Assembly (NCBI RefSeq): GCF_003315205.1
Contig: NZ_QNRR01000013.1
Coordinates: 131,959-195,958, forward strand
Reading direction: 5' to 3'
Origin: Roseimicrobium gellanilyticum
GTDB taxonomy: Bacteria > Verrucomicrobiota > Verrucomicrobiia > Verrucomicrobiales > Verrucomicrobiaceae
DNA: 64,000 nt
The notes below the pieces were generated by a model, which worked only from the letters and a program-made list of their open reading frames with translations, did not search any database and was not told the origin of the DNA. The position numbers and the translations under genes were made by a program. This document shows positions 9,595 through 63,155 of the stretch, piece after piece; positions within the stretch are counted from its first letter, which is position 1; every line of letters starts with the position of its first letter.

Positions 9595-9600
9595 CTTTGC

Positions 9601-9720
9601 CAGTGCCTTGGAACTCGCTGTCTGAAAGACAGCAGGAGCCCAGCCCAGGGTTAGGGAGCCTGAGCGACCGACACCCTGGGTATGCCAGGAACGGAATCGC
9701 GCTCTGAAAGAGCGCAGGAG
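9601..9720. repeat. Left ~120-bp inverted-repeat arm flanking the transposase. It contains two palindromic hairpins (CTGTCTGAAAGACAG; GCGCTCTGAAAGAGCGC).
   Basis: Reverse complement matches 10190-10315 almost base-for-base (e.g. GCGCTCTGAAAGAGCGCAGGAG vs CTCCTGCGCTCTTTCAGAGCGC). Confidence 0.8.
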
Positions 9721-9724
9721 ATGG

Positions 9725-10177
9725 TCAATCCCAGACATAACGTTCGTCGAATTCGACGTCGTGTTTCCTCAGGAAGGCGCGGAACTCGTCTTGAAAGGAG
9801 TGTTTTTGGTGGTGTTCGCGTTGATTGCGGATGTATTCGCTCACAGCATCCACGTTAGAGGAACTCACGGAGAAGGCTCCGTAACCGTGCTGCCAGTAAA
9901 AATCACGGAACTGGACGTGTTGTCCACGAAGCCAATTCGTGGAACCCTTCTTCAAGTCTCGCACCACATTGCTGATAGTCGCGGTCCGTGACAGGAGAAA
10001 CAACAAGTGCGCATGATCAGGCTCCGTGTTGATTTCCACGGATGAACAATCCGCCTCACGCAATACCCCACCCATGTAGTCGTGCAGCGCGGGACGGATT
10101 TCGTCCGGCAACACGCGCACGCGATCTTTCGTGGAGAAGATCAAGTGGAGGTAAACCTTGGCGAGGGACTGGGCCAT
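9725..10177 (-). CDS. tnpA: IS200/IS605-family Y1 (HUH) transposase, probably a REP-associated tyrosine transposase (RAYT).
   Basis: 150 aa. HUH motif DHAHLL. Catalytic-Tyr region FRDFYWQHGYGAFSV matches the IS200 TnpA 'W.RGY..S' signature. Local GC is clearly lower than the surroundings. Confidence 0.85.
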   Translation of the reverse strand: MAQSLAKVYLHLIFSTKDRVRVLPDEIRPALHDYMGGVLREADCSSVEINTEPDHAHLLFLLSRTATISNVVRDLKKGSTNWLRGQHVQFRDFYWQHGYGAFSVSSSNVDAVSEYIRNQREHHQKHSFQDEFRAFLRKHDVEFDERYVWD

Positions 10178-13400: not shown

Positions 13401-16400
13401 ATCCTATGTAGGAAAGGTCGCCATCTGCCTTCCAGCCGACCACATACGGCAGCGGCGCCACCAGGAAGGTCTGCGCGCCACGCACGCTGCGCCCCCCATC
13501 CGGCTCGAACCCTTCCGTGAAAAACTCCGCGCTGAAGACACCGTCGCTGAAGCGCTCCAGAGCCAGGTTGAAGACGGCGTTGCCATTGTCATCCGTGGTC
13601 TGCTCGCCGAGTTGCACCTCCGTGCCTGCAGCGGCGGATTCGTTGTCCTGCTCCTCCTCGTCTTCATCCTTCAAGCGATTGTGGAAGGTGAAGTCGGGAA
13701 ATTTCGGGAAGGAGAAGTTCGCGGGATCCAGCGTGAGCTTGGCCGTCACGCGACGCTTCGCGGCGGGCATGCCGAAGAGTGTCTGTAGATTGATGGTGGC
13801 CTTCACATCACCCGGCTGCACCCAGGCGAGTCCCGGAGGCGTGCTCAGGGTGACGCCCAGCTTCATGCGGTCCGGCTGGAAGTCCTCCACGCGGAAGCCT
13901 GTCCGGCTTAGCAGGATGCGATTCCCCTCATCGTCCGGGTTCGGCAGCAAGTAGAGTCGCGCGGTGTAGGTGCCAGTCGGCGACTCTTCTGCGGTCTCCA
14001 CTTCTGTATCAAAGAAACCGTCTTCACTGAGGGCTATCTGCTGGGTATCGAGCAGTTCCTCTTTCGAGTCACGCACCTCCAGTACGAGGGGCAACCCATC
14101 CAGCTGGCCAGCCCAGTCGCGGCGCTTGGCAATGCCGCCCACGTGTACCTTGTCACCCGGGCGATAGACGCCACGTTCGGTGAAGAGAAAGCCATCCAGC
14201 GCTTCCTTTTCTGAGGCGAGAACACCTTCGATATCGAAGCGCGAGAAATCCAGCAGACGATCCGGCCGATGGAAGGGCAAGAAGGCCACATCATTCCCCG
14301 AGCGGGCGATGACACACACGGGCAGCTTCTCACGACGGAAGTGCTCCACGTTCGGCACGCTGGCGTGACCCTGCGCATCCGTGGTAGTTTCATGCAGGAA
14401 CTCGCCATTCTTCGCCAGCGTGATGATCTTCACCTCCGCCGCGGGTTCACCCTTCATCAGGCTCTGCACGAAGATCTCACGCGAGGCATCCGCATTCCGC
14501 TTTTGCAGAATGCCAAGATCGGTCACGAGGATGAAGCGACTCGCCGCCACATTCTCACCCACGCGCACCCACTTGGCCTCGGCTTCCTCGGAGTCCGTGC
14601 CCACATCCTCGCCTTCTTCGTTCTGCTGCTCATCTTCGTTGCGCTCGCGCACGCCTTCCACGGTCAGGAAGAAGAGACCGCGCGAGGCATCCGGATCATT
14701 GGTGTCCTGGGAGTTCAGTGCGTTGGTGAAGTCAAAGGTGCTGTAGTTCGCCTGGTATTCATTCGGCATCACCACGTCGCGCACTTCGCGGTGCACGCGG
14801 GAGATGTTGTACTCATCGAAGTCCGTTTTCCAGTAGGGCGACTCGAAGTCACCACCCGTGAGCCGGGCGAGGTGATTGATCTGGCTGAAGGGCACGCGAG
14901 CGAGTGTGATGCGCAGGTGCTGCACACCACGGTATTTCAGGCTCAGCTTCTTTTCCCCGTTCAGGGCCAGCACGCCACCGGCACCCTGGATTTCCACTTC
15001 CTTGGGAAGCTCCGGCACATCATCCAGAGCGAGGTGTTCCTTGCCCAGGCGGAAGCCGCCGAGGGCCTGCACACCATTGGTGATGCGTACAAAGAGACGC
15101 CCCACTCCGGGCGGCTGCATCTTGAAGGCGTGCATCGCGGCCATGGGAGCGTCTTCATCCTTCTCTGCCTCCACGCGCTTCAGCGGGATGGGCTTCGAGG
15201 CGCTGATGACCGCCGGGGTGATCTCACCCGTGTTCGGCCAGTCATAGTCTTCCACCGCAGGACCCGCCGGGCTGGCGGCTTTGTCCTTGGGCAAGAGCCA
15301 GACGGAGACATGTTTCTCCAGTTCTTCCCCTGTGACATAGCCGGTCGTTTCCAGGAAGAGGAACTGCTCGGGCTCACCCTCTTCCGTGCGCACGATGTCG
15401 GTGCGTACTTCCTTGATGAAGAAACCGGTGGTCACGTCGGGCACACGCACCTTCGTGGTGACACCCGTTTCGGTCACTGCTCCGCCTTGGGTATTGGCGA
15501 GCCCTTTCGTGAGGGTCACGTTCACAAAGTCTTCCTTCTCCGGAACCGCAATGCGCGTCGTGCGCACATAGTACTCCCGCTGATGCGCCCCTTCCGTCAC
15601 GGTGAAGAAGGTATCGGGGGTCTTGCCCCCGTAGTTGAAGATGGGCGTCTTCCCCAGCACGTCGAGAGTGATGTGTTTCTCCACCTCATCCTTCGTCACC
15701 GGGTGGCTGAAGTTCAGGTTCACCGTGATCTGGTGCACCGAAGGGTCCTTCGGGTCCGTGTAAAACTCACTGCTCGTCACCTTGGCCACGAGCGGCGGGG
15801 TGGTGAATTTCCACTGTGCCTCCTTGAGCTTTGTGGCAGGAGGCAGGGTTTCCTTGTCAAAGGACACAGTGTACTCGTTAGCAGCGGGCCAGTAGTCCTG
15901 CGAAGTCTGGAAGACGAGTTTCTTGTCCGTCACCCATTTCCACTCGCCGGGCATGGCAGGCTTCATGGTCACGCCCTTGGTGGCGGCTTTGCCCACGGAT
16001 TCCAGAGGGGCGATGGAGCTGGAGAAGTCCAGCACCACGGGCTGCACGACCGGTTTGTTCTTCACGATGGGCGTGACGCCCGGAGCCACGAGCTTGCTGG
16101 TGATTTCCCGAATCTCCACCAGTGGCGTGGGTCGCGATTTGTATTTCTCCACCCAATGGTACCACCCGTATCCACCCGCGATCGTCACACCCGTCGCTAC
16201 AATGATCGATGCCCAAACGCCGGGGCCCCGGCGCATGCTATCAAGGACACTTCCGCTGGTGGACACGAGCCACCCGGGAGGCTGGTACTTGAAATCTCCA
16301 AAGACCGCGCGGGAAAGCCGTCCCCAGTTGCGCGGCATCAACAAAGCCAGATGTCGGAACATATAAAGTCTTCCGAGTGGATGTAGTACTGCATCCGGCA

Positions 16401-16410
16401 GTGACAGCAA
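10423..16410 (-). CDS. yfhM: Bacterial alpha-2-macroglobulin (YfhM/ECAM-like, MG-domain protein), ~1995 aa, with a CSEQ thioester-type motif.
   Basis: Enormous beta-rich protein. PYGCSEQITS is the canonical thioester-site context (CxEQ). N-terminal TM segment VWASIIVATGVTIAGGYGWYHWV. Same strand as pbpC, the known conserved A2M partner. Alternative start ATG at 16236. Confidence 0.85.
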   Translation of the reverse strand: MLSLPDAVLHPLGRLYMFRHLALLMPRNWGRLSRAVFGDFKYQPPGWLVSTSGSVLDSMRRGPGVWASIIVATGVTIAGGYGWYHWVEKYKSRPTPLVEIREITSKLVAPGVTPIVKNKPVVQPVVLDFSSSIAPLESVGKAATKGVTMKPAMPGEWKWVTDKKLVFQTSQDYWPAANEYTVSFDKETLPPATKLKEAQWKFTTPPLVAKVTSSEFYTDPKDPSVHQITVNLNFSHPVTKDEVEKHITLDVLGKTPIFNYGGKTPDTFFTVTEGAHQREYYVRTTRIAVPEKEDFVNVTLTKGLANTQGGAVTETGVTTKVRVPDVTTGFFIKEVRTDIVRTEEGEPEQFLFLETTGYVTGEELEKHVSVWLLPKDKAASPAGPAVEDYDWPNTGEITPAVISASKPIPLKRVEAEKDEDAPMAAMHAFKMQPPGVGRLFVRITNGVQALGGFRLGKEHLALDDVPELPKEVEIQGAGGVLALNGEKKLSLKYRGVQHLRITLARVPFSQINHLARLTGGDFESPYWKTDFDEYNISRVHREVRDVVMPNEYQANYSTFDFTNALNSQDTNDPDASRGLFFLTVEGVRERNEDEQQNEEGEDVGTDSEEAEAKWVRVGENVAASRFILVTDLGILQKRNADASREIFVQSLMKGEPAAEVKIITLAKNGEFLHETTTDAQGHASVPNVEHFRREKLPVCVIARSGNDVAFLPFHRPDRLLDFSRFDIEGVLASEKEALDGFLFTERGVYRPGDKVHVGGIAKRRDWAGQLDGLPLVLEVRDSKEELLDTQQIALSEDGFFDTEVETAEESPTGTYTARLYLLPNPDDEGNRILLSRTGFRVEDFQPDRMKLGVTLSTPPGLAWVQPGDVKATINLQTLFGMPAAKRRVTAKLTLDPANFSFPKFPDFTFHNRLKDEDEEEQDNESAAAGTEVQLGEQTTDDNGNAVFNLALERFSDGVFSAEFFTEGFEPDGGRSVRGAQTFLVAPLPYVVGWKADGDLSYIGLDTPRSLKMIAVGPDQSLLAVPGLTQHILHIKHVSVLTKQENGNYAYVSTKREQSISEGALPLAADGASFTLPTNKAGEYRFELRDGEGNVVCATAFTVVGKGDAERSLERDAELEMKLARTSLQSGQPLEFSLRAPFTGAGLATIERDRVLGWQWIKQGTPSATHSIMVPEGLEGTGYVNVSFVRALDSPEVFTSPLSYAVQPFAVDENKRRMLVELDAPQRVKPGTTMTIGFKTTKPGRIVVYAVDEGIHQVTNYKLPDPLKHFMRKRALEVESEQILDLILPEFSQLMKQKAFGGSEDVALKMHLNPFKRRKEAPVVFWSGLVECGPDRQEVTYDVPDYFAGSLKIMAVAVSEDIVGTAQAQATVKGPFVLTPNAPFFAAPGDEFTASLTVANNLEGPSAPGTIALKVEGTEHLVVLPPLESNLEVGPGKEATARFKVRVKGELGGAELTFHASAGGEEAKRSTTLSVRPATPYMTHVQSGYFRLGKQDIAVNRDMFPEFRKTSATVSTAPLGLARGLESYLREYPYGCSEQITSRAMSRLLLADEVDFGFDKAEANEQLDAAFMLLRTRQHGNGGFGYWDGFCDAKPDFLSVYVTEFLTEARDAGYAVPSDILDAARNRMKQMARAKTANLEEANFQAAAIYLLTRNGEVTTNQVLNLRDTLEKEYKDKWEGTLSAAYLASTYMLLKQEKEGRTLMDLYRRKSDPKPFFERWLGGWWSDPQVRNAQAFALMCRHFPNIAGDFGYKDLAVITEPIAKHRFNTISSATSIMALKAYTALAKKSDVKLSITEVARAAGVEPKLLVPPSAGILNVPFGANAGTIRFNLDQGNSDLGAFYQVVEAGFEKGDAKDKITDGFEVFRELMDKDGKPIEKLKVGQSATVKLVIRNISPEDQTNVALLDLLPGSFEVEQGTLRPGRNTMPGADFVEVREDRNVFFTNVRKGDVQVFTYRIKPIAAGTFVIPPVYAESMYDQNFKGRALGGKLVVEAAQ

Positions 16411-34844: not shown

Positions 34845-35435
34845 CTACCGAGACCTTAGTATCCCCCGCGCAATCGCCTCGGCGAGCTTCTGCCGATGCG
34901 CCGCGCTGCCGCAGCGACTGGCTTCGGCCTTGTTGCTGATGAATCCGCACTCCACGAGCACGGCGGTGCCGCGGGTGTGCTTCAGCACGGCGTAGTTCCC
35001 CCGCTTGATGCCGCGATTGTTCGCCGAGACCTTGCTGATCAGAGACTGCTGAATCGTGTAGGCAACCTTGCGTCCACGATCACTGCGGTAATAGGTCTCA
35101 ATGCCTTTGATGGCCGTAAGGCGTGTGGAATTGAAGTGAATGCTGACAAAGAGCGAATTGCGGTAGCGGTTCGCGATGGCCGCTCGTGACTCCAGAGCCA
35201 CCGCACGATCCGTTCTGCGCGTCATCACAGTCGTCACACCGTTTCGTTTCAGGATGGTCTCCACTCGCTTCGCGACATCGAGCGTGAGATTCTTTTCCGA
35301 AAGGCCATTCCAACGCGTACCACGATCCGAGCCACCATGCCCCGCATCGATGACTACAACCGCCGCGAAAGATCGCGTTGCCAGCAACAGCACCAACGCA
35401 AAGGCACACAAGAGGCCCCGACACTTCCCCGACAT
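34845..35435 (-). CDS. N-acetylmuramoyl-L-alanine amidase (Amidase_3, AmiC/CwlD-like).
   Basis: VVIDAGHGG…D.G, …SIHFNS…, and E in LVECGF are Amidase_3 Zn ligands. Signal peptide present. Start ambiguous (35435, 35450 or 35489). Confidence 0.8.
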   Translation of the reverse strand: MSGKCRGLLCAFALVLLLATRSFAAVVVIDAGHGGSDRGTRWNGLSEKNLTLDVAKRVETILKRNGVTTVMTRRTDRAVALESRAAIANRYRNSLFVSIHFNSTRLTAIKGIETYYRSDRGRKVAYTIQQSLISKVSANNRGIKRGNYAVLKHTRGTAVLVECGFISNKAEASRCGSAAHRQKLAEAIARGILRSR

Positions 35436-35519
35436 GGTGTGGATGTGCATGTCCAGAGATGTCATGAAACAGCCATGCGTGACAAGCATGACTGTGATTG
35501 TCAGCCCTTTTATTTAGGA

Positions 35520-36059
35520 CTAGGGAATGCGCAGCACTTTGCCAATGCTCAGGAAATCGGAAGACATCCCATTGGCAGCCTTGAGCTTGGCCACGGAAGT
35601 GGAGTTCCGTGAGGCAATGGCCGAGAGCGTGTCGCCCTTCTTCACCGTGTAGGAGCGGCCGCCACCCTTCTTGGAGGAAGAGGCCACCTTGGACTTCGAG
35701 CCCGACTTGGACTTGCTGCTGGAGGTCTTCGCCACCGTGCGTTTCTTGCCCGTGGCAGCACCGCCATAGGAGCCGCTCCACTTGCTCACATCCGCGCTCG
35801 TGGCGCCGGCAGATCTCCCGGCCCGGCGCTCTCCAGCCGCGGCCCAGTCTGACATGTAACGCCCGCTCGAATCGAAGGGATAGTCTTCCTTCGAAAGGCT
35901 ATGCGACGGTGTCGAGGTGTTCCCGTGCAAGGTGATTTTGGGGAGGTTGCTGGGGATGCCTTCAATCTTGTTCGAGCTGCAGGAACTGAGCGAAAGCATG
36001 AGCGCCACCGCAGCGGCGCAGGCAGCTGCAGAATGGGGATTCTTCCAAAATCTCAACAT
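35520..36059 (-). CDS. LysM-domain lipoprotein.
   Basis: Lipobox …LSLSSC. C-terminal LysM YTVKKGDTLSAIASRN…KLKAANG…IGKVLRIP. Ser/Lys-rich linker. Confidence 0.65.
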   Translation of the reverse strand: MLRFWKNPHSAAACAAAVALMLSLSSCSSNKIEGIPSNLPKITLHGNTSTPSHSLSKEDYPFDSSGRYMSDWAAAGERRAGRSAGATSADVSKWSGSYGGAATGKKRTVAKTSSSKSKSGSKSKVASSSKKGGGRSYTVKKGDTLSAIASRNSTSVAKLKAANGMSSDFLSIGKVLRIP

Positions 36060-36215
36060 GGCGGAAACGCTAGCACGCACTGTCAAATCTGCCACTGCCG
36101 GATGGTTCGTTTCACGACTGAAATGCCCATGCAAAACACGGGATGAGGCACAGTGCCACACTGGTGCGTCAGGCACGCTGGCATCTCACAATCAGTGAAA
36201 TCACCACACCTCGAA

Positions 36216-46608: not shown

Positions 46609-48396
46609 ATGACTTCGCCAAACCGGAAACCGCTGCTCAGCAGGCTGCTGTTTGTCCTGGGCTGGACGCTGGCGTGGTCGCCGGCTTTGCTCATTCTCAC
46701 CATGCTGCTGCCTCTCCGGGTGCCGGTGCCCTTCGAGGATGCGTGGGCATTCGTGAAACAGTATCGCGATTGGTGGGAGGGTGACTATGGCTGGCGCGAG
46801 TTCCTTGCGCCGCACAACAACCACCCTTCCGCTTCGGGGAAGGTGTTCTACTTCATCGCACTTCACTGGCTGGGTGGTGACGTGGGTGTGCTGCCGCTCG
46901 TAGCATGGGCATTCTCCCTCATCATCGCCGTATCCGTGTGGGTGATGGCACGCTCGCTCTGGATGGGGCGTTCATCACGCGGGATGCTGCTGATGTTCTG
47001 TGCGAATCTCACCATCTTCACGGCAGCGCAGGGGCATTCGTGGGTGTGGGACTTCGTGTTTCAGAACTTCATTCCAGGAATGGCTTTCTGCGCCGCGCTG
47101 GCCACCTTGTGGAAATGGCCGGGGTCATGGTCTGCCCTCGTCGTGGCGTGGTGTCTTTCCATCATGGCCACATTCTCCTTCGGCACGGGGTTTCTCGCCG
47201 GGCTGCTGCTGACACCGATGGTGGCAATGCATTTCCGGGAGAAGCCCCTGGCGTGGCGTGGCGCGGTCACCGCGATCTGGTTGCTGCTGACAGGTGGCGC
47301 GGCCTTTCTCGCGCTCTCTGCCTTTGGCGAAGCGACCTACACCGGGGATGAATCCCGCGTTGGCAGCCTGTTGGAGCAGCCCGTACTCTTGGCACAATTT
47401 GTCCTCGTCCTGCTGGGCTATCTGCTCGGTAATGGCACCACCATGGAACCGGCCCTGCTCTGCGCTCTCGCCGGACTGGGGCTTGTCGTCATCCTGCTGG
47501 CATGCGTCTTTCGCGTGTGGCAGCTGCGCAAGGAGCCGGGCATGGTCCAGGCAGCCATGCCCTGGGTGCTGACGACCCTCTTTGGGTTGCTCAATGCCGG
47601 ACTCATCAGCTACGGAAGGCTGCGGTCGTCAATGATTTCCGCGATGGCTCCCCGGTATGTGACGTTCACGCTCTTCTTCACCCTGGGTGTGCTCCTGCTG
47701 GCAGCGGTCGTCGCGGTACGCGACAAGCCTTCAGGCTGGTTCCGCGTTGGCATGCGGCGCGCGGGGCTGTTGCTGGTGGGGGGACTCATTGCCCTGCACG
47801 TGGTGAACTGGAATCATGGCTGGCAACACATGAAGTGGGAGCACGAGCGGATGCAGCAGGACCGGGCGCTGCTCTCCTTTGCCAAGGTGCTGCCGCTGGA
47901 CCCGGAGGTGATGTGGCAGAATCTCGACCACAAAGATCTGACGACGCGGCTGGCCCTGTTCCTTCATGAGCATGACCGATTGAAGAGCGTGCGCCTGGTA
48001 AAGGGCGTGGCCATCACGGATTTCCGTCGCGGCTCCCCACTGCCGGACAAATGGGCCTGGCTGGAAGCGCCCGTGGTGCACGAGGGTGTGATGCATCTCA
48101 GCGGCGCCTGTGGCGTCTCCAAGGACATGGTCAGCCTTCCGGAACTTGTGCTCATCACCGCCCAGTCGGCGGATGCGGGCGAGAGCGTGGTCTCGTTTGC
48201 CACACCGCGACAGCCTTTCGACTTCTATGAGAATGAATGGCTGCGACGCCAGCATCCGGGGCACTACTTCGGCTGGGCGCGAGAGCTCCCTGTGTCGAGA
48301 TTTCCGAAGGGGAAGGTCACGGTCCGCGCGTATGGGTATTGGATGAAGGGATTCACCGTGCGGGCGCTGGACCGGGAGCATGTGATTGACCTTTGA
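46609..48396 (+). CDS. Polytopic membrane protein with a C-terminal soluble domain (GT-C-like architecture). Paralog of 54011-56041.
   Basis: About 11 TM segments. First-loop acidic motif PFEDAWAF. Shared motifs with the paralog (APRY…; …HG(W)QH(M)…W…R; P(L/V)(D/N)P…). Confidence 0.65.
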   Translation: MTSPNRKPLLSRLLFVLGWTLAWSPALLILTMLLPLRVPVPFEDAWAFVKQYRDWWEGDYGWREFLAPHNNHPSASGKVFYFIALHWLGGDVGVLPLVAWAFSLIIAVSVWVMARSLWMGRSSRGMLLMFCANLTIFTAAQGHSWVWDFVFQNFIPGMAFCAALATLWKWPGSWSALVVAWCLSIMATFSFGTGFLAGLLLTPMVAMHFREKPLAWRGAVTAIWLLLTGGAAFLALSAFGEATYTGDESRVGSLLEQPVLLAQFVLVLLGYLLGNGTTMEPALLCALAGLGLVVILLACVFRVWQLRKEPGMVQAAMPWVLTTLFGLLNAGLISYGRLRSSMISAMAPRYVTFTLFFTLGVLLLAAVVAVRDKPSGWFRVGMRRAGLLLVGGLIALHVVNWNHGWQHMKWEHERMQQDRALLSFAKVLPLDPEVMWQNLDHKDLTTRLALFLHEHDRLKSVRLVKGVAITDFRRGSPLPDKWAWLEAPVVHEGVMHLSGACGVSKDMVSLPELVLITAQSADAGESVVSFATPRQPFDFYENEWLRRQHPGHYFGWARELPVSRFPKGKVTVRAYGYWMKGFTVRALDREHVIDL

Positions 48397-54010: not shown

Positions 54011-56041
54011 ATGGTGGAATCCTCCCTGTCCCCCCAACCGGCCGCACCCGCGGTTTCCCAGTCCACCTTGCCGGGCACGGTCCAGAAGCCGGCAACCTTC
54101 ATCGAGAGATTCCGGCTGGTCCTGGGCTGCCTTCTGGTCAGCCTGCCGGGTATCGCGCTTTTCCTGCTCATCCGTGAGCACCGTGTGAACATCCCCTTCC
54201 TCGATGACTGGATGTTTGTGCATATGTTCGAGAAGGACGCCCTGGGCACACTGACGGTGGCGGACTACTTCATGGTGCAGATGGAGCACCGCATGGCATT
54301 TGTGCGGGCGGTGATCATGGTGTTTCACAAGGTGTGGCCCACGGACTGGACCATGCAGATGTTCTTCTGCTGGTTTCTCCTTGTCCTCACCCAGGTGAAT
54401 GTGGGCGTCCTCATCAAGCGCACCTCGGGGAAGTCCTTCCTCACGTGGTGGCCCCTGCTCATGCTGGCAGCGCTCACCCTCTTCTCACCGGTGCAGTACC
54501 GCATCGTGCTCTGGGCGATGATGTTTCAGGTGGCCTGTCCGGCCTTCTTCCTGAGCACGGCGCTGGTGGCCGTCACTTCTCCGTGGCCACTGTGGCTGCG
54601 GTGGATCGTGGGTGTGCTGGCCGCAAGCTGCGCCACGCAGAGTTTCGCCTCCGGCATCCTTGTGTGGCTCCTGCCGCTGCCCATCGTCTGGTTCGGCGGT
54701 GTCATCCGCAATTCCCTAGCGCGGCACATTTTCGGCGCGCTGTGGCTGGTGGCCTTCGGCATCACCATGGTCCTCTACTTCCATGACCTGAAGAATGAGG
54801 TGGACTCCGCCTTCGCGTACAAGCAGCAGGATGGTCATGAAACGCTGAAGAGTGACCTAGCAGGATTCCTCAAGGAGCCTGGAAGGGCCGTCCCGTATGT
54901 GCTGCGTTTCCTTGGCGGGCATCTGGGGCGTGGCAGCAGTCTCAGCGTGATGCACGCGAGTTTTTATGCGGGCCTCATCTCCGTCCTCCTGTACACGGGT
55001 GCAATGGCGTACCTCCTGTGGCATTGGAAACGGTTGGACATCCGGGCGAAGCTTCTGCCCTGGCTGATGTTCGGCGCGTACTCCATCGCGACCGCCTGCC
55101 TCGTGGCGGTGGGACGCATGTGGGCGTCCACGAATGGAGACAATGCGATCGCCCCACGGTATGCCATTCATCCGGTTCCGCTGACCGTTTCGCTCATCGT
55201 GCTCACCTGGCTGATTGTGCGGGACTGGCAGAAGCAGCGCGAAACTCCTGTGCGCACCGTGAACCGCGCGATGCTGGCCATGGCGGTGGTGCTCTGCTGT
55301 GTGCAGGCGGCCTCCTGGGTGCATGGACAGCACCTCATGGAGATGTGGCAGTCCTCACGCCTGCGCGGCGCGGTCACCACGCGCTTCGTGAAAGTGATGC
55401 CCGAGATGGACAACGTGGTGCCGGTGAATCCCCACTACGCGATCCTTGCGGACAGGCTGGGCCTGCTGGACCCACCCCTGCTGAAGGATCGCCAGCTCAA
55501 CAATTTCCGCCTCGCGCCAAAGATGCTGAGCTCAAACACCGCGAGGTTCAAGAACATCGAGATTGGCATGGATGACGATGGGTTCTACGGCATCGCTGAA
55601 GGGTATGCGTGCCTGGCTTCACGAGAGCGTGTGGCGGACGGTGTCTTCCTCACGCGGCGTATTCCACGCGAGGGACGCTGGGAAATCTTCCACGTGGAGC
55701 AGGTCACGGGCATGCCGCTGTTCCTTGGTGAGATGTTCTTCAAGGACACACAGTTTGTGCATTTGCCAGGGCAAAGTGTGACGCAGGAGGTGCTGGCCGG
55801 GTTCTCAGGGCGCTTCCGATTGAATGAACTGCCTCCGGGGCTGCATGACATCATGGCCTGGGCATATGATTCCAAGAAAAACACCGTCTTTCCCATCGCG
55901 GGATTCTTCGAGTTGGATACCAGGGGCGCACACCCCAAGCTGAAGCGCTTGGGCACCAACCCGGCGGCGGTACATCTGAGCAAGTTCCTGGAGGGTGGGA
56001 AAAATCCACAGCCACAGTCACAGCCAGCGACGGAAGAGTAG
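54011..56041 (+). CDS. Polytopic membrane protein (GT-C-like architecture). Paralog of 46609-48396.
   Basis: Multi-TM N-terminal half with IPFLDDWMFV first-loop motif. Soluble C-terminal half. Confidence 0.65.
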   Translation: MVESSLSPQPAAPAVSQSTLPGTVQKPATFIERFRLVLGCLLVSLPGIALFLLIREHRVNIPFLDDWMFVHMFEKDALGTLTVADYFMVQMEHRMAFVRAVIMVFHKVWPTDWTMQMFFCWFLLVLTQVNVGVLIKRTSGKSFLTWWPLLMLAALTLFSPVQYRIVLWAMMFQVACPAFFLSTALVAVTSPWPLWLRWIVGVLAASCATQSFASGILVWLLPLPIVWFGGVIRNSLARHIFGALWLVAFGITMVLYFHDLKNEVDSAFAYKQQDGHETLKSDLAGFLKEPGRAVPYVLRFLGGHLGRGSSLSVMHASFYAGLISVLLYTGAMAYLLWHWKRLDIRAKLLPWLMFGAYSIATACLVAVGRMWASTNGDNAIAPRYAIHPVPLTVSLIVLTWLIVRDWQKQRETPVRTVNRAMLAMAVVLCCVQAASWVHGQHLMEMWQSSRLRGAVTTRFVKVMPEMDNVVPVNPHYAILADRLGLLDPPLLKDRQLNNFRLAPKMLSSNTARFKNIEIGMDDDGFYGIAEGYACLASRERVADGVFLTRRIPREGRWEIFHVEQVTGMPLFLGEMFFKDTQFVHLPGQSVTQEVLAGFSGRFRLNELPPGLHDIMAWAYDSKKNTVFPIAGFFELDTRGAHPKLKRLGTNPAAVHLSKFLEGGKNPQPQSQPATEE

Positions 56042-56262: not shown

Positions 56263-57513
56263 TCACTCTTCCCCACCTGTCGTCTCCACGGAGGCTTTCA
56301 GGCGGAAGCCTTGGACGCTGGTCTGACCCTCGTAGGAGTAGATGCGCTGCACGTCGCCAATCTTCATCAGCAGCCAGGGGGATGCGATGTTTTCACCGTT
56401 CTTGGTGTAGACGATGTCGTCCGCAACATAGACGCAGGAGTGGATGGCATTTCCCTGGGCATTGAGGAACATGAGCACATCGCCAAACTCAAAGGGAGCC
56501 TCGATGCGATTGTAGTTCTCCAGCACCGCAGCCGTCGCCAGGCGGGTGTCCAGATAGTACTCGCGGGGTTTGTAGTTGAAGAAATTGAGGGACGTCCAGT
56601 GGCAGTCCGGCATGCGGCCGAGGACGGCCAGTTCCATGGGCGGGTAGCCATAGAGGAATCGGCGGGCCAGCGAGGGCAGCAGTTGGATGACGTCCAGCTT
56701 GTTTTCGCCCTCGGTTTCCAGGGTAGAGCCGACCAGGGGCTCGATGTCCTTGTTTCGCTTGCGACCGCTCCAGTAGCGAACCACGCTTTTGAAGTCGGTG
56801 TTGTCATCCACGACCAGCTTGAGCATGAGAGACCGGGTGCGGGTCATGGTCTTGAAGAAGTCCTTCGCCTCGGCGTCCGTCTTCACATAGTTCAGCACAG
56901 CAGAGAGGTCGCTGAAGGCGAGCACCTCGCCACGCATGTAGGTGAATTTCTTGATCACCTCCCGGAGCTCTGGATTGAGACGGGACTGGCCCAGCCACTG
57001 GTCGACACTACCGCTGGTGATGAACACAGGGTTGAAGTAGAACTCGTTCTCCGGTGTCTTCGCCAGCTCGGCATAAATGACAGAGCGCTGGGCGGGAGTC
57101 ATGGCCGAAAGGTCCGGCAGCGGGGGGAAGACGGTGATTCTCCCGTCCTTGTTCACGCAGTTCTTGGCATCCAGCAGGTAGTCCTGAAGCGCCTGGGGAA
57201 GAGATGCGCGGGTGAATAGCGCTCTGAGGTCACCTTCCGTCGCGGCGGGGAATTCCCACTTGGTGACGGAGTTGGGCATGGGGAAATGCTCAATGAGGCT
57301 CTGGGGTGCCTCGAGGTAGATATAATAATACTCAAGCTGCCCCCAAGGGCCTGGGTTGCAATGATAGACCTTTCCGAACATCTCTGAGCTTGAGTTCCCT
57401 TCTGGCAATGGCGTACCTGCCTGAGCCGGACTCGATGCCTGGGGCAGCAGCAAACCGGCAACAGTACCGGCGAAGAGAGCGAGAAGACGGTGCGAAAGGG
57501 AACGGGGCATCAT
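56263..57513 (-). CDS. Secreted protein with a C-terminal papain-like (NlpC/P60-type Cys…His) region.
   Basis: Signal peptide. …MPDCHW… (candidate Cys) about 45 aa before GDVLMFLNAQGNAIHSCVYVADDIVYTKNG, which resembles the His-region of NlpC/P60. Confidence 0.5.
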   Translation of the reverse strand: MMPRSLSHRLLALFAGTVAGLLLPQASSPAQAGTPLPEGNSSSEMFGKVYHCNPGPWGQLEYYYIYLEAPQSLIEHFPMPNSVTKWEFPAATEGDLRALFTRASLPQALQDYLLDAKNCVNKDGRITVFPPLPDLSAMTPAQRSVIYAELAKTPENEFYFNPVFITSGSVDQWLGQSRLNPELREVIKKFTYMRGEVLAFSDLSAVLNYVKTDAEAKDFFKTMTRTRSLMLKLVVDDNTDFKSVVRYWSGRKRNKDIEPLVGSTLETEGENKLDVIQLLPSLARRFLYGYPPMELAVLGRMPDCHWTSLNFFNYKPREYYLDTRLATAAVLENYNRIEAPFEFGDVLMFLNAQGNAIHSCVYVADDIVYTKNGENIASPWLLMKIGDVQRIYSYEGQTSVQGFRLKASVETTGGEE

Positions 57514-57662
57514 TGAGAGGTGCGGAAACGGGGGGCGGTACTGGTGTGAAACGGATGGCCTTTGTCAATCATAGGCTCTCCGGCGTTGAATTCTGCTTTT
57601 CGTGCAGCAGAAGATTGTCATTCTCCGGCAAATACGCTCTAATCGCGACCTTGATTCTAAAA

Positions 57663-60149
57663 ATGCCCGGAGGTACCCCCCCACTGCCCATTTCAACGAC
57701 CGCCAGGAAGGCTCTTTGCCCTCTCCTGCTGGCTGGCAGCGTCTGGTGTGGAACCGCAACGCTCCTCCAGGCTGGCCCAGCAGGGGCCCCGACCTCCTCC
57801 GTTGCCGAAAGGGAAGTGGCCCGTCGTGCCGCCCTGATGCAACAGGCCAAAGTCTACATCGCCGAAGCCGCTCTCCTTGAACAGAAAGGGCAGCATGCGG
57901 AGGCCGCCGCCAGCTATCGTGAGGCGTGGAATCTCCTGCCGAATGCTCCCATGGCCGCTTCCCTGCGTGCCGAGGCCCGGGATGGCTACTCCCGCACGGC
58001 GGTGCTCTACGCTCGCCAACTGGCCAAAGAGGCTCGCTATGATGATGCCCGCACCCTGCTGAAATCCGTTCTCGCTGAAGATTTCAATCCGGGATATGCG
58101 GACGCCAAGCAGTTCGAAAAGGAACTGGATGATCCCGACCGCTACGAGCCGGCACTGACTCCGAAGCATGTCAAAGATGTAGCCAGGGTGGAGGAGCAAC
58201 TCCGCTTGGGCTGGAGCCATATCAATCTGGGCAATTTCGACAAGGCGAACGAACGCTTCAAGGAAGCCCTGAGAATCGACCCCTACAACAAGGCCGCCCG
58301 CCGTGGCATGGAGCAGTCGGAGCAGCACAAGGATGACTACTTCGATACCGCGAGGGACCACACCCGCGCCAAAATGCTGTCCGCGGTGGATCAGGGCTGG
58401 GAAGACTCTGTACCGGTCGATTTGTCCAAGCTTTTTGGCGCATCCGCTCAACTGGGCGTGATGGGAGGCACCCGCGAGTCCAATCTGGTGAAGCTGCGCA
58501 CTTTCATGGTGCCCATGGTGGAGCTGCAGGGTGCCGGTCTTGAGGAAGTCGTTGAGTTCCTGCGCATCCGCAGCCGCGAGATTGACCCCCAGAAGAAGGG
58601 CGTGGACTTCGTGCTCAAGGTCGCCCCGGAGTACGCAAACAAGCCCGTGACCCTCAACATGGTGGGCGTGCCGCTAGAGGAAGTGCTCCGGTATGCCACG
58701 GAAATGACCGGTACGATCTACCGGGTGGACGAATTCGCGGTGACCATCACCTCCCGTGCGGAGCGGTCTGATACCCTTGTTTCCCGCAGCTATCGCGTCC
58801 CTCCTGATTTCCTGCAGAACGCCCCGTCCGGTGGAGCCGCTGCTCCTCCTGCCAATCCCTTCGATCCGCAACCGGCGGCCACGGGTCTGACTATTCGGCG
58901 CATGGGCGTGCGGGAGTTCTTGGAGCAGCGCGGTGTGAAGTTCCCCGAAGGCGCTGCGGCATCCTACAGTCCCGCCACGAACATCCTCACCGTGCGCAAC
59001 ACCGAGGAGAATCTGGTGCTCGTCGACGCCATGGTGGACCAAATCGCCAGCGCGGTGCCTCGACAGGTGGAAATCCAGGTGCGGATGGTGGAAATCAACC
59101 AGAACCGCTTCAACGAATTCGGCTTCGACTGGCTTCTGGGACAGTTCAATCTGCCTGGCACGGAGAAGGTCTTCGGCAGCGGCGGCACGGTCGGCAATCA
59201 GCGTAACGCTCCCTTCGCGAGTTCTGACTTCGGTCTTGGCTATCCCGGTACAAACGTTCCGATTGGCGTGAATCCCATCACCTCGGGCCTGCGCAGCTCT
59301 GGAGCCATTCTGGGAACGCCATCGATTGACGGCCTCATCGGCCAGAGAAGAAATGTGGGCCTGGATTCCCGCTCGCCCGGCACTTTCTCCGTGACGGGGG
59401 TCTTCACCGACCCACAGTTCCAGATGGTGCTGCGCACGCTCGACCAGAACAAGGGTGTGGATTTCCTCGTCGCTCCGAATGTGGTCACCAAGAGCGGCCA
59501 GCGCGCCCGGGTGTCCGTCTCGCGTGAGTTCATCTACCCTACTGAGTTCGACCCGCCACAGATTCCCCAGAGCCTGGGTTCTTCTGAGACCGTTACCATC
59601 GTCAATGGTGTTCCTGTAAGCGTGGAAGTGAATGGCCCGGGCGTGGTTCCCGTGACCCCGACTACGCCAACCGCATTCGAGATGCGCGAGGTCGGTGTGA
59701 TTCTCGAGGTGGAACCCGTGGTGGGACCGGACAATCGCACGGTGGAACTCAACCTCGTCCCGAGCCTGGTCGAGTTTGAGGGTTTCATCAACTACGGCAC
59801 CCCCATCACACTGACCGGTTCCGATGTGCCGCCCAACACCATCGCGACGCCCAACGAAATCCTGCAGCCCATCTTCCGTACCAACAAGATCTCCACGAAT
59901 GTGACCGTGTATGACGGCCAGACGGTGGTGCTGGGTGGAGTGATGTACGAAAAGCGCCAGGACATCGATGACAAGGTCCCCATCATCGGTGACATCCCCA
60001 TCATCGGTCGCGCTTTCCAGAGCCAGCTCGGCAATGTGGAAAAGAAGAACGTGCTCTTCTATGTGTCCGTGAAGATTCTTGATCCGGGTGGCAATCGCGT
60101 AAACCCGATCATGACGGTCGAAGAAGGCGCGGCGACGGTGGCGCGCTAA
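57663..60149 (+). CDS. Secretin-family outer-membrane channel protein (GspD/PilQ-like) with an N-terminal TPR-like region.
   Basis: C-terminal secretin domain signature …TVVLGGVMYEKRQDIDDKVPIIGDIPIIGRAFQS…VLFYVSVKIL. Start ATG 57663 (signal MPGGTPPLPISTTARKALCPLLLAGSVWCG). Confidence 0.8.
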   Translation: MPGGTPPLPISTTARKALCPLLLAGSVWCGTATLLQAGPAGAPTSSVAEREVARRAALMQQAKVYIAEAALLEQKGQHAEAAASYREAWNLLPNAPMAASLRAEARDGYSRTAVLYARQLAKEARYDDARTLLKSVLAEDFNPGYADAKQFEKELDDPDRYEPALTPKHVKDVARVEEQLRLGWSHINLGNFDKANERFKEALRIDPYNKAARRGMEQSEQHKDDYFDTARDHTRAKMLSAVDQGWEDSVPVDLSKLFGASAQLGVMGGTRESNLVKLRTFMVPMVELQGAGLEEVVEFLRIRSREIDPQKKGVDFVLKVAPEYANKPVTLNMVGVPLEEVLRYATEMTGTIYRVDEFAVTITSRAERSDTLVSRSYRVPPDFLQNAPSGGAAAPPANPFDPQPAATGLTIRRMGVREFLEQRGVKFPEGAAASYSPATNILTVRNTEENLVLVDAMVDQIASAVPRQVEIQVRMVEINQNRFNEFGFDWLLGQFNLPGTEKVFGSGGTVGNQRNAPFASSDFGLGYPGTNVPIGVNPITSGLRSSGAILGTPSIDGLIGQRRNVGLDSRSPGTFSVTGVFTDPQFQMVLRTLDQNKGVDFLVAPNVVTKSGQRARVSVSREFIYPTEFDPPQIPQSLGSSETVTIVNGVPVSVEVNGPGVVPVTPTTPTAFEMREVGVILEVEPVVGPDNRTVELNLVPSLVEFEGFINYGTPITLTGSDVPPNTIATPNEILQPIFRTNKISTNVTVYDGQTVVLGGVMYEKRQDIDDKVPIIGDIPIIGRAFQSQLGNVEKKNVLFYVSVKILDPGGNRVNPIMTVEEGAATVAR

Positions 60150-60290: not shown

Positions 60291-61646
60291 CTACCACAGC
60301 GCCATCTGCTCGCCGCCTTCGGGAGTCACTATTTCTGACTGGGGCAGTTCGCGGGTGAGACTCTGCTGGAACCACGTTTGCGCCGGCGGGTCGCCATGCA
60401 CGAGGAGCACCTTGGCAGGAGCGACCTGCTTCACGTACTCCACAATGCTCTCGCGCGTGGAATGCGCGCTGAAATCATAGCTCTCCACGCGGCTGTTGAC
60501 TTCGACTGCAGGCAGCTTTGGATCGAGCACCACGAGCTCACCGGGCTTGGCATTTCTCACACGATAACCGGGCGTGAGCGGGTCCGTGTAGCCGACGAAG
60601 GCCACGGTGTTGCGAGGGTTCGGCAGGAACTGGCGCGCGAACTGGTTCGAAGTGGTACCCTCGCTCATCATGCCGCTGGAGAGGGCATAGATGGTCTGCG
60701 GATTGTAGGTGAGCTCCTTCTTCCGTTTGCGCGGGGCCACGAGCGTACGCATGTCTTCGAGGATGCGGAAGCCCTCGTAGTTGCGCCGGGTCTTGTGCGC
60801 GTACTGGTCGTAGGTGACGGTGACCTTGGTGCTCAAGCCACCAATGACCACCGGCGCCGGCGGGATGAGCTCCATCTCCACGAGCTCATGCATCATCACG
60901 AGCACTTCCTGGGATTTGCCCAGGGCGAAGACGGGAATGAGCACGGCGCCATTGGCCTGGAACGTTTCGCGGATGGCCTTGCCGAGCCGTTCCTTTTCCG
61001 AGCGGCGGGTGAAGTCCTCGGGACGCTGGTAATCACCACGCGTGGTCTCGATGATCAACACATCAATGTCTTCCGTGGGGAAGTCTGCCCCCTTGGTGAT
61101 GGTCTGGGATTCGAAATTGACGTCGCCGGAGTAGAAGAGCGTCTTGCCCTCATGCCGCAAGCGCACCCCCACAGAGCCCATGATGTGGCCGGCATCAAAA
61201 AAGGTGCACTCCACATTGGTGCCCGGGAGGATGAAGGGTTTGCGCAGGTCGCGGTAGTCCCACTGCGACACGATACCGTCGATCTCCTTGTGCGTGAAGA
61301 GCGGGTACTCGTGAATCTGCAACTCATCCCGCTGGCTGGACATCACGTTCACGGAATTGTGCAGCATGCCCGCGGTGAGTTCACCGGTAGCCTCGGTCAT
61401 GAAGACCGGCGTCTTCGGCTGCTGGCGCTGCAGCACGGGCAGCGACCCGATGTGATCGTGGTGCGCATGCGTGATGATGATGGCATCCACACTGTCATAG
61501 GGCACGGAGCTGAAGTTGGGCAGTGACTCCAGCCCTTTTTCACGAGGGTGCGCGCCGGCATCGAGGATGATGCGGCTGCCGCCTGCTTCGATGAGGTAGG
61601 AGTTTGCGCCGATTTCCTTGCGGCGCAGCAAACTGCGAAATGTCAT
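60291..61646 (-). CDS. Metallo-beta-lactamase / beta-CASP family ribonuclease (RNase J / CPSF-like).
   Basis: HAHHDH motif. Downstream D, H (beta-CASP motifs A-C). C-terminal RNA-metabolising MBL region. 451 aa. Confidence 0.8.
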   Translation of the reverse strand: MTFRSLLRRKEIGANSYLIEAGGSRIILDAGAHPREKGLESLPNFSSVPYDSVDAIIITHAHHDHIGSLPVLQRQQPKTPVFMTEATGELTAGMLHNSVNVMSSQRDELQIHEYPLFTHKEIDGIVSQWDYRDLRKPFILPGTNVECTFFDAGHIMGSVGVRLRHEGKTLFYSGDVNFESQTITKGADFPTEDIDVLIIETTRGDYQRPEDFTRRSEKERLGKAIRETFQANGAVLIPVFALGKSQEVLVMMHELVEMELIPPAPVVIGGLSTKVTVTYDQYAHKTRRNYEGFRILEDMRTLVAPRKRKKELTYNPQTIYALSSGMMSEGTTSNQFARQFLPNPRNTVAFVGYTDPLTPGYRVRNAKPGELVVLDPKLPAVEVNSRVESYDFSAHSTRESIVEYVKQVAPAKVLLVHGDPPAQTWFQQSLTRELPQSEIVTPEGGEQMALW

Positions 61647-61877: not shown

Positions 61878-63155
61878 CTACGCCGCCGCATCCCCAACCA
61901 CGTCAGACAAATCCTGCGCCTTCGGCTCCGGAGCCGCCCGCTTGCGATGCGGCCACAAAAAACAAAACAGCGTGGTCGTGGCAAGCACGACGGTGGCCGG
62001 TGCGGGTGACCACCACCAGAGGGAGGACTGGAAGGTGAGCATGCAAACGATGGCTGCCAGCGCTGCGAGCAGGATGCCGGCAAGCAGGGCCTTGATGCGG
62101 CCACGACGAAACTGCCAGAGCGAGAACAGCGCCATGGCTCCTGCGAATGCCCACTCTCCCCACTGCGGTGCCCGGTGCAGGTGCGGTACGGCGAGCGCCT
62201 GCGCGATGGCCCGGGCCTGAGCCTGGGCAAAGGCACCGATGCCAATCACGACCACCTTGCCCTTCCCCAGAACATCCGTGGAGGTGTCCGGCACGGAGTC
62301 ATCGATGCGCGGTGTCAGCAGCATGAGCGCATCGAGCTTCGGCACGGTGGGTTTGTCATCCAGGACCATGGAGCCGCCTTTGTCGAGCGGTACCACATGC
62401 GTATCACTGAGGCTCAACCGTGCTCCGGGGCCGAAGCGCAGATGGAGATTGAAAGAAGCCATGCGCAGGAACCGCGATACAGTCTGCGCTGGGAGAGTCG
62501 GGACGAGATGCGAGCCATCACTGACCACGAACGGCAGGGCCTCATACGATTCCTTCACCGCAGTGCCGGGCAGCACGCGTGCGATGCCCACTTCCGTGCC
62601 GATGCGCAGGGCCTTGTCCGGCAGATGGGACACGCTTTGGAAGGTCGTTCCCGCTTGGGAGAAGTCACCCGCCTGGGCACGGAAGAACGGCAAGCCACTG
62701 GAGACAAACTCCTGCTGCTCGGGCGACGACTCTGCCTTCTCTGTGGAAACATCGAAGCCCAACACAACGGATGGCACGGGAAGCAGCAACTCGCGGAGCT
62801 TTCCAATGAACTGCGCGTCCGACGCCTCCCAGCGCAGTGGCTCGACAAACGCGATGACCTCCGGATTCGCCGGGGCGAGCTTCTTCATCAGCATGATGTA
62901 ATCCAGCGGTGCGGGTGGCCACGCGCTGAACTCAGCCTTGTCCTCCTCCCGGAATTCAACCAGAACCACATCCGCAGACGAATCCGGCACTGCCTTCTGG
63001 AAACTCTCCTGCGAATTCGCCATGAGGAAGTCCAGGAAGCCCTGCTCAAACTCCCGCACGCGCCCCTGATACTCAGGAGACATGCGCAAAGCAATGACAT
63101 GCCCCACCAAGGCCGCCGTGAGCAGGACAGCAAAGGTGGTGACGCGCGCTTTCAT
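61878..63155 (-). CDS. CHASE2-like extracytoplasmic sensor domain protein (signal/TM, ~330-aa periplasmic domain, three C-terminal TMs, no output domain).
   Basis: The topology matches CHASE2. The periplasmic domain has no other recognisable fold. Confidence 0.5.
   Translation of the reverse strand: MKARVTTFAVLLTAALVGHVIALRMSPEYQGRVREFEQGFLDFLMANSQESFQKAVPDSSADVVLVEFREEDKAEFSAWPPAPLDYIMLMKKLAPANPEVIAFVEPLRWEASDAQFIGKLRELLLPVPSVVLGFDVSTEKAESSPEQQEFVSSGLPFFRAQAGDFSQAGTTFQSVSHLPDKALRIGTEVGIARVLPGTAVKESYEALPFVVSDGSHLVPTLPAQTVSRFLRMASFNLHLRFGPGARLSLSDTHVVPLDKGGSMVLDDKPTVPKLDALMLLTPRIDDSVPDTSTDVLGKGKVVVIGIGAFAQAQARAIAQALAVPHLHRAPQWGEWAFAGAMALFSLWQFRRGRIKALLAGILLAALAAIVCMLTFQSSLWWWSPAPATVVLATTTLFCFLWPHRKRAAPEPKAQDLSDVVGDAAA

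Follow-up and report, generated by a model that had tools for sequence, protein, structure and literature searches.

What does a secretin do in a stretch of genome that encodes no other part of a secretion or pilus machine, and why should its gene stand back to back with that of a secreted, papain-like protein? The question is raised by a 64-kb stretch of the genome of Roseimicrobium gellanilyticum (contig NZ_QNRR01000013.1; hereafter the window), which carries a secretin gene and, transcribed divergently from it, a gene for a protein of 416 amino acids (aa). A sequence-only reading of this pair had described an orphan secretin with a tetratricopeptide repeat (TPR)-like N-terminus beside a possible NlpC/P60-type hydrolase. 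We found that the secretin belongs to a known, curated and already annotated family, the Amuc_1098 family, whose fusion of TPRs to a secretin has already been published. Within this family it is a stand-alone paralogue, of a clade distinct from the paralogue encoded in the pilus-like operon Amuc_1102-1101-1100-1099. The 416-aa neighbour ends in a domain for which structure prediction supports a papain-like NlpC/P60 fold, and a functional link between the two proteins, suggested by the arrangement of their genes across relatives, is plausible.

A stand-alone secretin of the Amuc_1098 family

The secretin gene and the parts of its product occupy the following positions in the window:

57663..60149, plus strand: secretin gene, 828 aa; Amuc_1098-family TPR-secretin of the stand-alone paralogue type ("clade A")
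57801..58409, plus strand: TPR-like all-alpha region, model residues 48-250; AlphaFold (AF2) helices 48-249 with a predicted local distance difference test (pLDDT) score of ~90, Pfam TPR_2 and TPR_14, Foldseek
58470..58799, plus strand: first alpha/beta N-type (ring-building-like) domain, residues 271-380; AF2 pLDDT ~85, Foldseek
58908..59099, plus strand: second N-type (N3-like) domain, residues 417-480; AF2, with the GspD and MshL NCBIfam alignments beginning at residues 423-438
59586..60080, plus strand: beta-core matching PF00263; Pfam, AF2 and Foldseek; includes VPIIGDIPIIGRAFQS

The plus-strand frame is open from 57306, and from the ATG at 57663 to 60149 it encodes 828 residues plus a stop codon. 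Both open reading frames (ORFs) of the pair lie where the sequence-only reading had placed them; its length of 829 aa for the secretin counted in the stop or one additional codon. We assigned the start to 57663 because it is the sole ATG with a conserved promoter-like motif on its 5′ side and a hydrophobic signal-like segment on its 3′ side. The C-terminal secretin domain recognised earlier was borne out by Pfam PF00263 (E = 8.9e-29; 100.7 bits against a cutoff of 27.5), and TPR_2 and TPR_14 also scored above their own cut-offs, while Secretin_N had no match in the protein at E ≤ 0.01 and AMIN was not found either. The family itself was identified by the NCBIfam equivalog NF042912, "Amuc_1098 family type IV pilus outer membrane protein" (E = 1.4e-286; 952.8 bits against a cutoff of 750), which aligns over its full length, residues 30-815 of the secretin corresponding to model positions 8-804 of 805. 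By comparison, the protein falls far under the cut-offs of the models for PilQ (TIGR02515, 90.2 versus 284 bits), GspD (TIGR02517, 111.3 versus 351 bits) and MshL (TIGR02519, 92.1 versus 250 bits), and the SctC cutoff is likewise far from reached. A RefSeq protein of R. gellanilyticum that is 100% identical over 94% of our query already carries the Amuc_1098 family name, so that the secretin can no longer be called uncharacterised.

The AF2 model, built with 40 homologues, has a pLDDT of 70.7; its predicted template modelling score (pTM) is low because a monomer was modelled and the real protein is multimeric. In it, an all-alpha region (48-250) precedes two alpha/beta domains (271-380 and 417-480), and a beta-rich core occupies ~600-810. 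From its N-terminus, the protein thus consists of a signal peptide, TPR-like helices, a pair of N-type domains and the beta-core. The motif VPIIGDIPIIGRAFQS that had been quoted from the sequence spans aa 772-787 (nt 59976-60023). Foldseek matched the model to TPR domains (~4e-4) and to PilQ, BfpB, InvG and GspD, with 400-650 aligned columns and E values from 8.8e-13 to 1e-9; the alignments of 575-650 columns to these four take in the N-type domains, and the model also matches fragments of XcpQ (N0-N2) and MxiD (N0-N1). The N-terminus is therefore helical and TPR-like, as the sequence-only reading had it, whereas its proposal that this region replaces the usual N0-N3 domains does not hold: in both the AF2 and the Foldseek results, the TPR region is followed by a pair of alpha/beta N-type domains before the core begins.

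The beta-core and N-type domains are shared with Vibrio cholerae PilQ (Foldseek, 8.8e-13) and with GspD structures (1e-10), although the window secretin, unlike PilQ and GspD, is encoded apart from pilMNOP or gspC-M genes. A TPR module is tied to secretin assembly in type IVa pilus and type II secretion systems; in type IVa PilQ systems this TPR pilotin (PilF/PilW/Tgl) is a separate protein, whereas in the window secretin the TPR region is fused into the chain. The same family and the same TPR-secretin fusion are found in Amuc_1098 ("PilQ") of Akkermansia muciniphila, a secretin described in 2016 as having an N-terminal beta-barrel assembly machinery (BAM)-like, pilotin-like domain with three TPRs (PMC4960237). 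The Akkermansia secretin is 34% identical to the window protein over residues 11-814, and it is only for this homologue that an outer-membrane location has been shown (PMC4960237).

We compared every sizeable ORF of the window with Pfam, a scan that reaches 57 kb upstream and 3.9 kb downstream of the secretin. Besides the secretin itself, no family of type II secretion, type IV pilus, type III secretion or Tad systems was found in the 64 kb, which confirms the earlier statement that no such gene lies within 4 kb and extends it to 57 kb upstream. Since the downstream flank is short, the secretin might still belong, as its PilQ, to a pilus locus situated just beyond the inspected flanks. This reading, which had been named in advance as one that would undo the orphan interpretation, is now very improbable. 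It is contradicted by the window scan, by the syntenic locus of Roseimicrobium sp. ORNL1, which has no secretion or pilus family within ±10 kb, and by the presence in ORNL1 of an Akkermansia-type operon with its own secretin paralogue 0.6 Mb from that locus. Moreover, tblastn with the Akkermansia proteins Amuc_1099, 1101 and 1102 returned no homologue from the window or from any of 83 related loci. These loci derive from a species scan with one genome per species, which gave 388 relatives of the 416-aa protein; the best 80 loci and three more were analysed.

In Akkermansia, the secretin gene lies in the cluster Amuc_1098-1102 (PMC5332112). We fetched Akkermansia contigs via a published cloning primer, and family scans recovered, on one strand, Amuc_1102, Amuc_1101 (PilM-like), Amuc_1099, the secretin, coaE and rho; between 1101 and 1099, an Amuc_1100-like sequence with a frameshift was made out by eye alone. 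In one metagenome contig (L128; 5577-6601 and 7686-10414) the Amuc_1100 and Amuc_1098 frames are frameshifted, most likely through assembly errors.

The complete genome of ORNL1 (CP049143.1) encodes three Amuc_1098-family secretins. The protein P0348, 47% identical to the window protein, stands in the operon Amuc_1102 / PilM-like / Amuc_1100 / 339-aa gene / secretin / CoaE / Rho. A second, P0344 (46% identical), stands alone and divergent from a response-regulator/histidine-kinase pair. The third, P0274 (79% identical), is orthologous to the window gene and shares its position, with like neighbours on both sides, and adjoins a homologue of the 416-aa gene. In a neighbour-joining tree, the secretins of all 416-aa-linked loci group together in a single clade that runs from Roseimicrobium to Prosthecobacter and Brevifollis, with P0348 and P0344 apart from it. 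Because the ORNL1 operon holds a different paralogue, the window gene is an extra copy and not the operon secretin. In Akkermansia, the operon Amuc_1102-1101-1100-1099-1098 ends with the secretin gene, whereas the window gene is monocistronic, belongs to another paralogue clade and has another conserved neighbour; the positional orthologue of Amuc_1098 in Roseimicrobium is P0348.

This bears on nomenclature. The "type IV pilus" label of NF042912 rests on a trait, a place at the end of the Amuc_1102-1101-1100-1099 pilus-like operon, that the window gene does not have. Verrucomicrobiaceae carry up to three Amuc_1098-family paralogues, only one of them in the pilus-like operon, and the product name "type IV pilus", given to every NF042912 member, probably says too much, for example for two of the three ORNL1 paralogues. 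Nor is the secretin alone in being scattered. A GspE/PilB-type ATPase gene and a GspF platform gene stand by themselves as a pair in ORNL1, and neither a secretin nor a pilin gene occurs within 10 kb of them; scattered type II/type IV machinery is therefore the rule in the genus, and orphan status by itself is unremarkable. The term orphan hence stands in the sense that no machinery lies nearby and loses its sense of an oddity, and distal pil/gsp genes, for which a check had been proposed, exist in ORNL1 as this lone pair and as the pilus-like operon with a secretin of its own. Between the ATPase and GspF genes of that pair sits a 142-aa gene of the bAvd / 23S_rRNA_IVP four-helix-bundle type (L180, 11788-12216).

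The 416-aa neighbour and its predicted fold

On the other side of the divergent intergenic region, the neighbour is laid out as follows:

56263..57513, minus strand: 416-aa secreted protein, unannotated, of an apparently Verrucomicrobiota-restricted family; AF2 pLDDT 86.3, pTM 0.83
57418..57513, minus strand: Sec-type signal-peptide-like N-terminus, aa 1 to ~32; h-region ALFAGTVAGLLL, then AQA/G, without a lipobox Cys, as read from the sequence
56629..57372, minus strand: conserved N-terminal region, aa 48-295, without a recognised fold match
56296..56628, minus strand: C-terminal domain of predicted NlpC/P60 fold, aa 296-406
56602..56604, minus strand: codon of Cys304, putative nucleophile at the N-terminus of helix 304-309 (AF2 secondary structure, conservation)
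56440..56442, minus strand: codon of His358, putative general base on strand 356-364 (AF2 secondary structure, conservation)

The ORF is real, as it has the coding signature of the genome in third-position GC content (GC3) and at least 809 homologues in one search. Clustering at 50% identity (E ≤ 1e-3) gave 1320 representatives of the family, nearly all of ~400 aa with a single architecture, and all named members come from Verrucomicrobiota. Three metagenomic members of 706-808 aa (P0123, P0219 and P0242) are about double that length and match the query twice over; they resemble tandem duplications or fusions of the entire unit. The family also occurs in lineages that are distant or in which it is unlinked to a secretin; it is usually single-copy, with 45-51% identity across genera. 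In 90 Akkermansia contigs, tblastn found no homologue of the 416-aa protein.

In the AF2 model, in which residues 1-40 have a low pLDDT, the placement of Cys304 at the N-terminus of a helix and of His358 on a strand fits the canonical NlpC/P60 arrangement. Both residues are invariant in 42 close homologues; among 139 representatives at 26-49% identity, His358 is conserved in 98% and Cys304 in 87%. Candidates for a third catalytic residue are T370, K371 and N372. The earlier suspicion of a secreted, papain-like protein is thus in keeping with the signal-like N-terminus and, as far as the predicted structure goes, upheld for the fold, whereas membership of NlpC/P60 by sequence is not, there being no PF00877 match. 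Compared with the NlpC/P60 enzymes (PF00877, MEROPS C40; MepS/Spr, CwlO, LytE, SagA and YkfC), the protein lacks a sequence match and is only 10-19% identical to its structural matches, and unlike the DL-endopeptidases of that family, its domain is preceded by a conserved region of 250 residues without a fold match. The sole match of the family profile among PDB sequences, CHMP1a (E = 0.015), was rejected as spurious.

The divergent pair and its possible role

How often the two genes are found together was assessed in the 83 loci. A clade-A secretin lies directly upstream of, and divergent from, the 416-aa homologue in 17, is not there in 53, and in the remaining 13 the sequence is too short to tell; the pair is therefore linked in 17 of the 70 informative loci, which answers the question of its conservation raised by the sequence-only reading with a subset of relatives. 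The pair is also present in Phragmitibacter flavus and on another scaffold (L177 and L178), both reached from the secretin side, and contigs of equal length in the hit lists of the two proteins suggest at least 12 further co-located pairs, with direct verification of only three. In all 18 linked loci, 110-280 bp separate the two genes. One might suppose that the unlinked 416-aa homologues are paralogues residing beside a linked copy; this was rejected, since by eye only one assembly occurs twice among the best 80 loci.

Linkage extends over Roseimicrobium, Verrucomicrobium, Phragmitibacter, Prosthecobacter and Brevifollis, related bacteria of soil and freshwater, across which the secretins are only 41-46% identical, and the linked state appears in several branches of the tree of the 416-aa family. 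The surroundings fall into two synteny groups. In Roseimicrobium, Verrucomicrobium and Phragmitibacter the flanks encode a metallo-beta-lactamase (MBL)/beta-CASP protein, a CHASE2 protein and a large membrane protein; in Prosthecobacter and Brevifollis they carry genes for an FHA protein and Rid together with purA, glgA and acnA. The adjacency of secretin and hydrolase is the only one common to both groups, all other neighbours being different. Because the linked secretins belong to one clade while every other flank has been replaced, the adjacency looks selected, and this pattern of gene order argues for selection on it.

Several neighbours can be described for the window itself. Convergent with the secretin is an MBL/beta-CASP/RMMBL (RNase J-like) gene (60291-61646, minus strand), followed by a CHASE2-domain protein (61878-63155, minus strand) and then GlgE; the set of MBL, CHASE2 and GlgE genes downstream of the clade-A secretin is kept in Roseimicrobium, Verrucomicrobium and Phragmitibacter and not in Prosthecobacter (L001, L007, L008, L177 and L178). 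On the side of the 416-aa gene, two paralogous large polytopic membrane proteins of 595 and 676 aa, without a Pfam or NCBIfam match (46609-48396 and 54011-56041, both plus strand), flank a PSCyt1/PSCyt2/PSD1 and DUF1501 gene pair, and a homologue of these membrane proteins stands beside the 416-aa gene in the Verrucomicrobium loci L007 and L008.

The space between the two genes holds one candidate regulatory element:

57514..57662, no strand: divergent intergenic region, 149 bp
57615..57643, plus strand: candidate sigma-70-like promoter of the secretin, TTGTCA, 17-nt spacer, TCTAAT; from the intergenic alignment, with putative function

This TTGTCA-N17-TCTAAT element lies 19 nt before the start codon of the secretin and, judged by its conservation, probably serves as the promoter of that gene. 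Seven loci, drawn from Roseimicrobium, Verrucomicrobium, Phragmitibacter and a metagenome scaffold, share the 11-mer TACGCTCTAAT (57633-57643) without a change, although their intergenic regions have otherwise diverged; another conserved word, AAGCATTTTC, is common to the Prosthecobacter-type loci. A consensus promoter scan of the region found no site, and it missed the candidate because of the C at position 2 of the -10 hexamer.

How might the two proteins work together? We favour, tentatively and at somewhat below even odds for the chain as a whole, a secretin gate that acts in trans, with the fused TPR region as pilotin substitute and a wall peptidase that aids its passage through the sacculus. 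The secretin would multimerise into an outer-membrane gate, such as the gated channel of 12-15 subunits typical of the secretin superfamily, and its TPR region would do the job of the separate TPR pilotin. The gate might serve, in trans, an inner-membrane machine of the type IV-filament/type II-secretion type encoded elsewhere, for example one including the isolated GspE/PilB-GspF pair. The 416-aa protein would be a periplasmic cysteine peptidase or amidase acting on the stem peptides of peptidoglycan, and, where the two genes are paired, local opening or remodelling of the wall by this enzyme may give the secretin's wide vestibule in the periplasm room to assemble across the sacculus. That the hydrolase helps secretin insertion, as the sequence-only reading also proposed, is what we infer by analogy. 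Among the dedicated wall hydrolases of trans-envelope machines, such as EtgA, VirB1, FlgJ and TagX, lytic transglycosylases and L,D-endopeptidases predominate, and their genes lie within the cluster of the machine. The concept is alike, a wall-cleaving enzyme encoded beside an envelope-spanning apparatus; here, unlike in those cases, the predicted fold is NlpC/P60, the only partner is a secretin, and most relatives do without the pairing.

A number of observations weigh against the favoured chain. Linkage is broken in 53 of the 70 informative loci, which counts against a role in insertion, and in the complete genome GCA_965284365.1 both genes persist 1.5 Mb apart. The 416-aa family reaches Chthoniobacterales and distant Verrucomicrobiales without secretin linkage, and since it is thus wider than the linkage, its core role cannot depend on the clade-A secretin; the fetched Akkermansia loci have no 416-aa homologue. 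The enzymatic assignment is also burdened: the 416-aa protein has no Pfam or NCBIfam match, its 42 homologues have no Pfam match at E ≤ 5, the family profile finds no NlpC/P60 chain among PDB sequences, Cys304 is replaced by Ser or Gly in ~10% of the distant representatives, and where a secretion machine has a wall enzyme of its own, this is usually a lytic transglycosylase and not an NlpC/P60 protein. Finally, the trees were built by simple neighbour joining and carry no support values. Much of this is what one would expect of inherited synteny without coupling, in which a trans-acting secretin gate for distal genes and a general housekeeping periplasmic hydrolase merely share an old divergent promoter region. 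Such an origin, which we consider nearly as likely as the favoured chain, draws on the same unlinked loci and separated genes, on a hydrolase family that is wider than the linked clade and usually single-copy, and on its slow, housekeeping-like evolution. It agrees, too, with a sole conserved intergenic motif that resembles the secretin's own promoter, and with the unlinked Prosthecobacter hydrolase, which occupies another stable context of GreA-like, AP (apurinic/apyrimidinic)-endonuclease-like, AMP-binding and methyltransferase genes. It is harder to reconcile with the pair alone surviving, in the same tight divergent geometry, between two lineages in which both flanks have been fully replaced, and with the linked secretins all being orthologues of one clade.

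Two further proposals would couple the proteins differently. The 416-aa protein might be cargo, carried by Sec across the inner membrane and then out through the secretin, as a hydrolase directed against the walls of other bacteria or a surface polymer. We regard this as quite unlikely: no conserved immunity-like gene stands beside the 416-aa gene, the protein is slowly evolving and single-copy and hence not effector-like, a secretin by itself has no known energy source for export, and the family usually adjoins no secretin. Alternatively, the clade-A TPR-secretin and the NlpC/P60-fold protein could make up an envelope module of just two genes that needs neither pilus nor pseudopilus, with the secretin as an exit gate devoted to the hydrolase or the hydrolase as an obligatory assembly factor for this secretin clade in particular. 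This, too, seems unlikely; if the hydrolase did prove to be such a factor, no earlier NlpC/P60-type enzyme would share its dedication to secretin biogenesis.

Further loci of the window and the meaning of the pair

Elsewhere in the window, an alpha-2-macroglobulin (A2M) gene of 1995 aa (10423-16410, minus strand) adjoins a PBP1C-type penicillin-binding protein with Transgly, Transpeptidase and BiPBP_C domains (7246-9738, minus strand), the classic A2M-PBP1C pairing; an IS200-like Y1 transposase ORF (9725-10177) lies between the two. Another wall-remodelling locus is formed by adjacent Amidase_3 (N-acetylmuramoyl-L-alanine amidase) and LysM ORFs (34845-35489 and 35520-36176, both minus strand), which may be a single gene split by the heuristic ORF call.

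A literature search for an orphan bacterial secretin, or for a link between a secretin and NlpC/P60 proteins, in Verrucomicrobia found nothing relevant. As far as this search reaches, three things appear to be new: the stand-alone paralogue clade of the Amuc_1098 family in Verrucomicrobiaceae, the recurrent pairing of this clade with an unannotated, Verrucomicrobiota-specific family, and the NlpC/P60-like catalytic domain predicted for that family from its modelled structure. The practical importance is modest, as the secretin family is known, and current understanding is not overturned. What the analysis supplies is a fold assignment and candidate catalytic residues for the 416-aa family and, in the stand-alone clade together with its partner, a large family without a Pfam or NCBIfam model, a lead on how, in an understudied phylum, an outer-membrane gate may be built through the wall.

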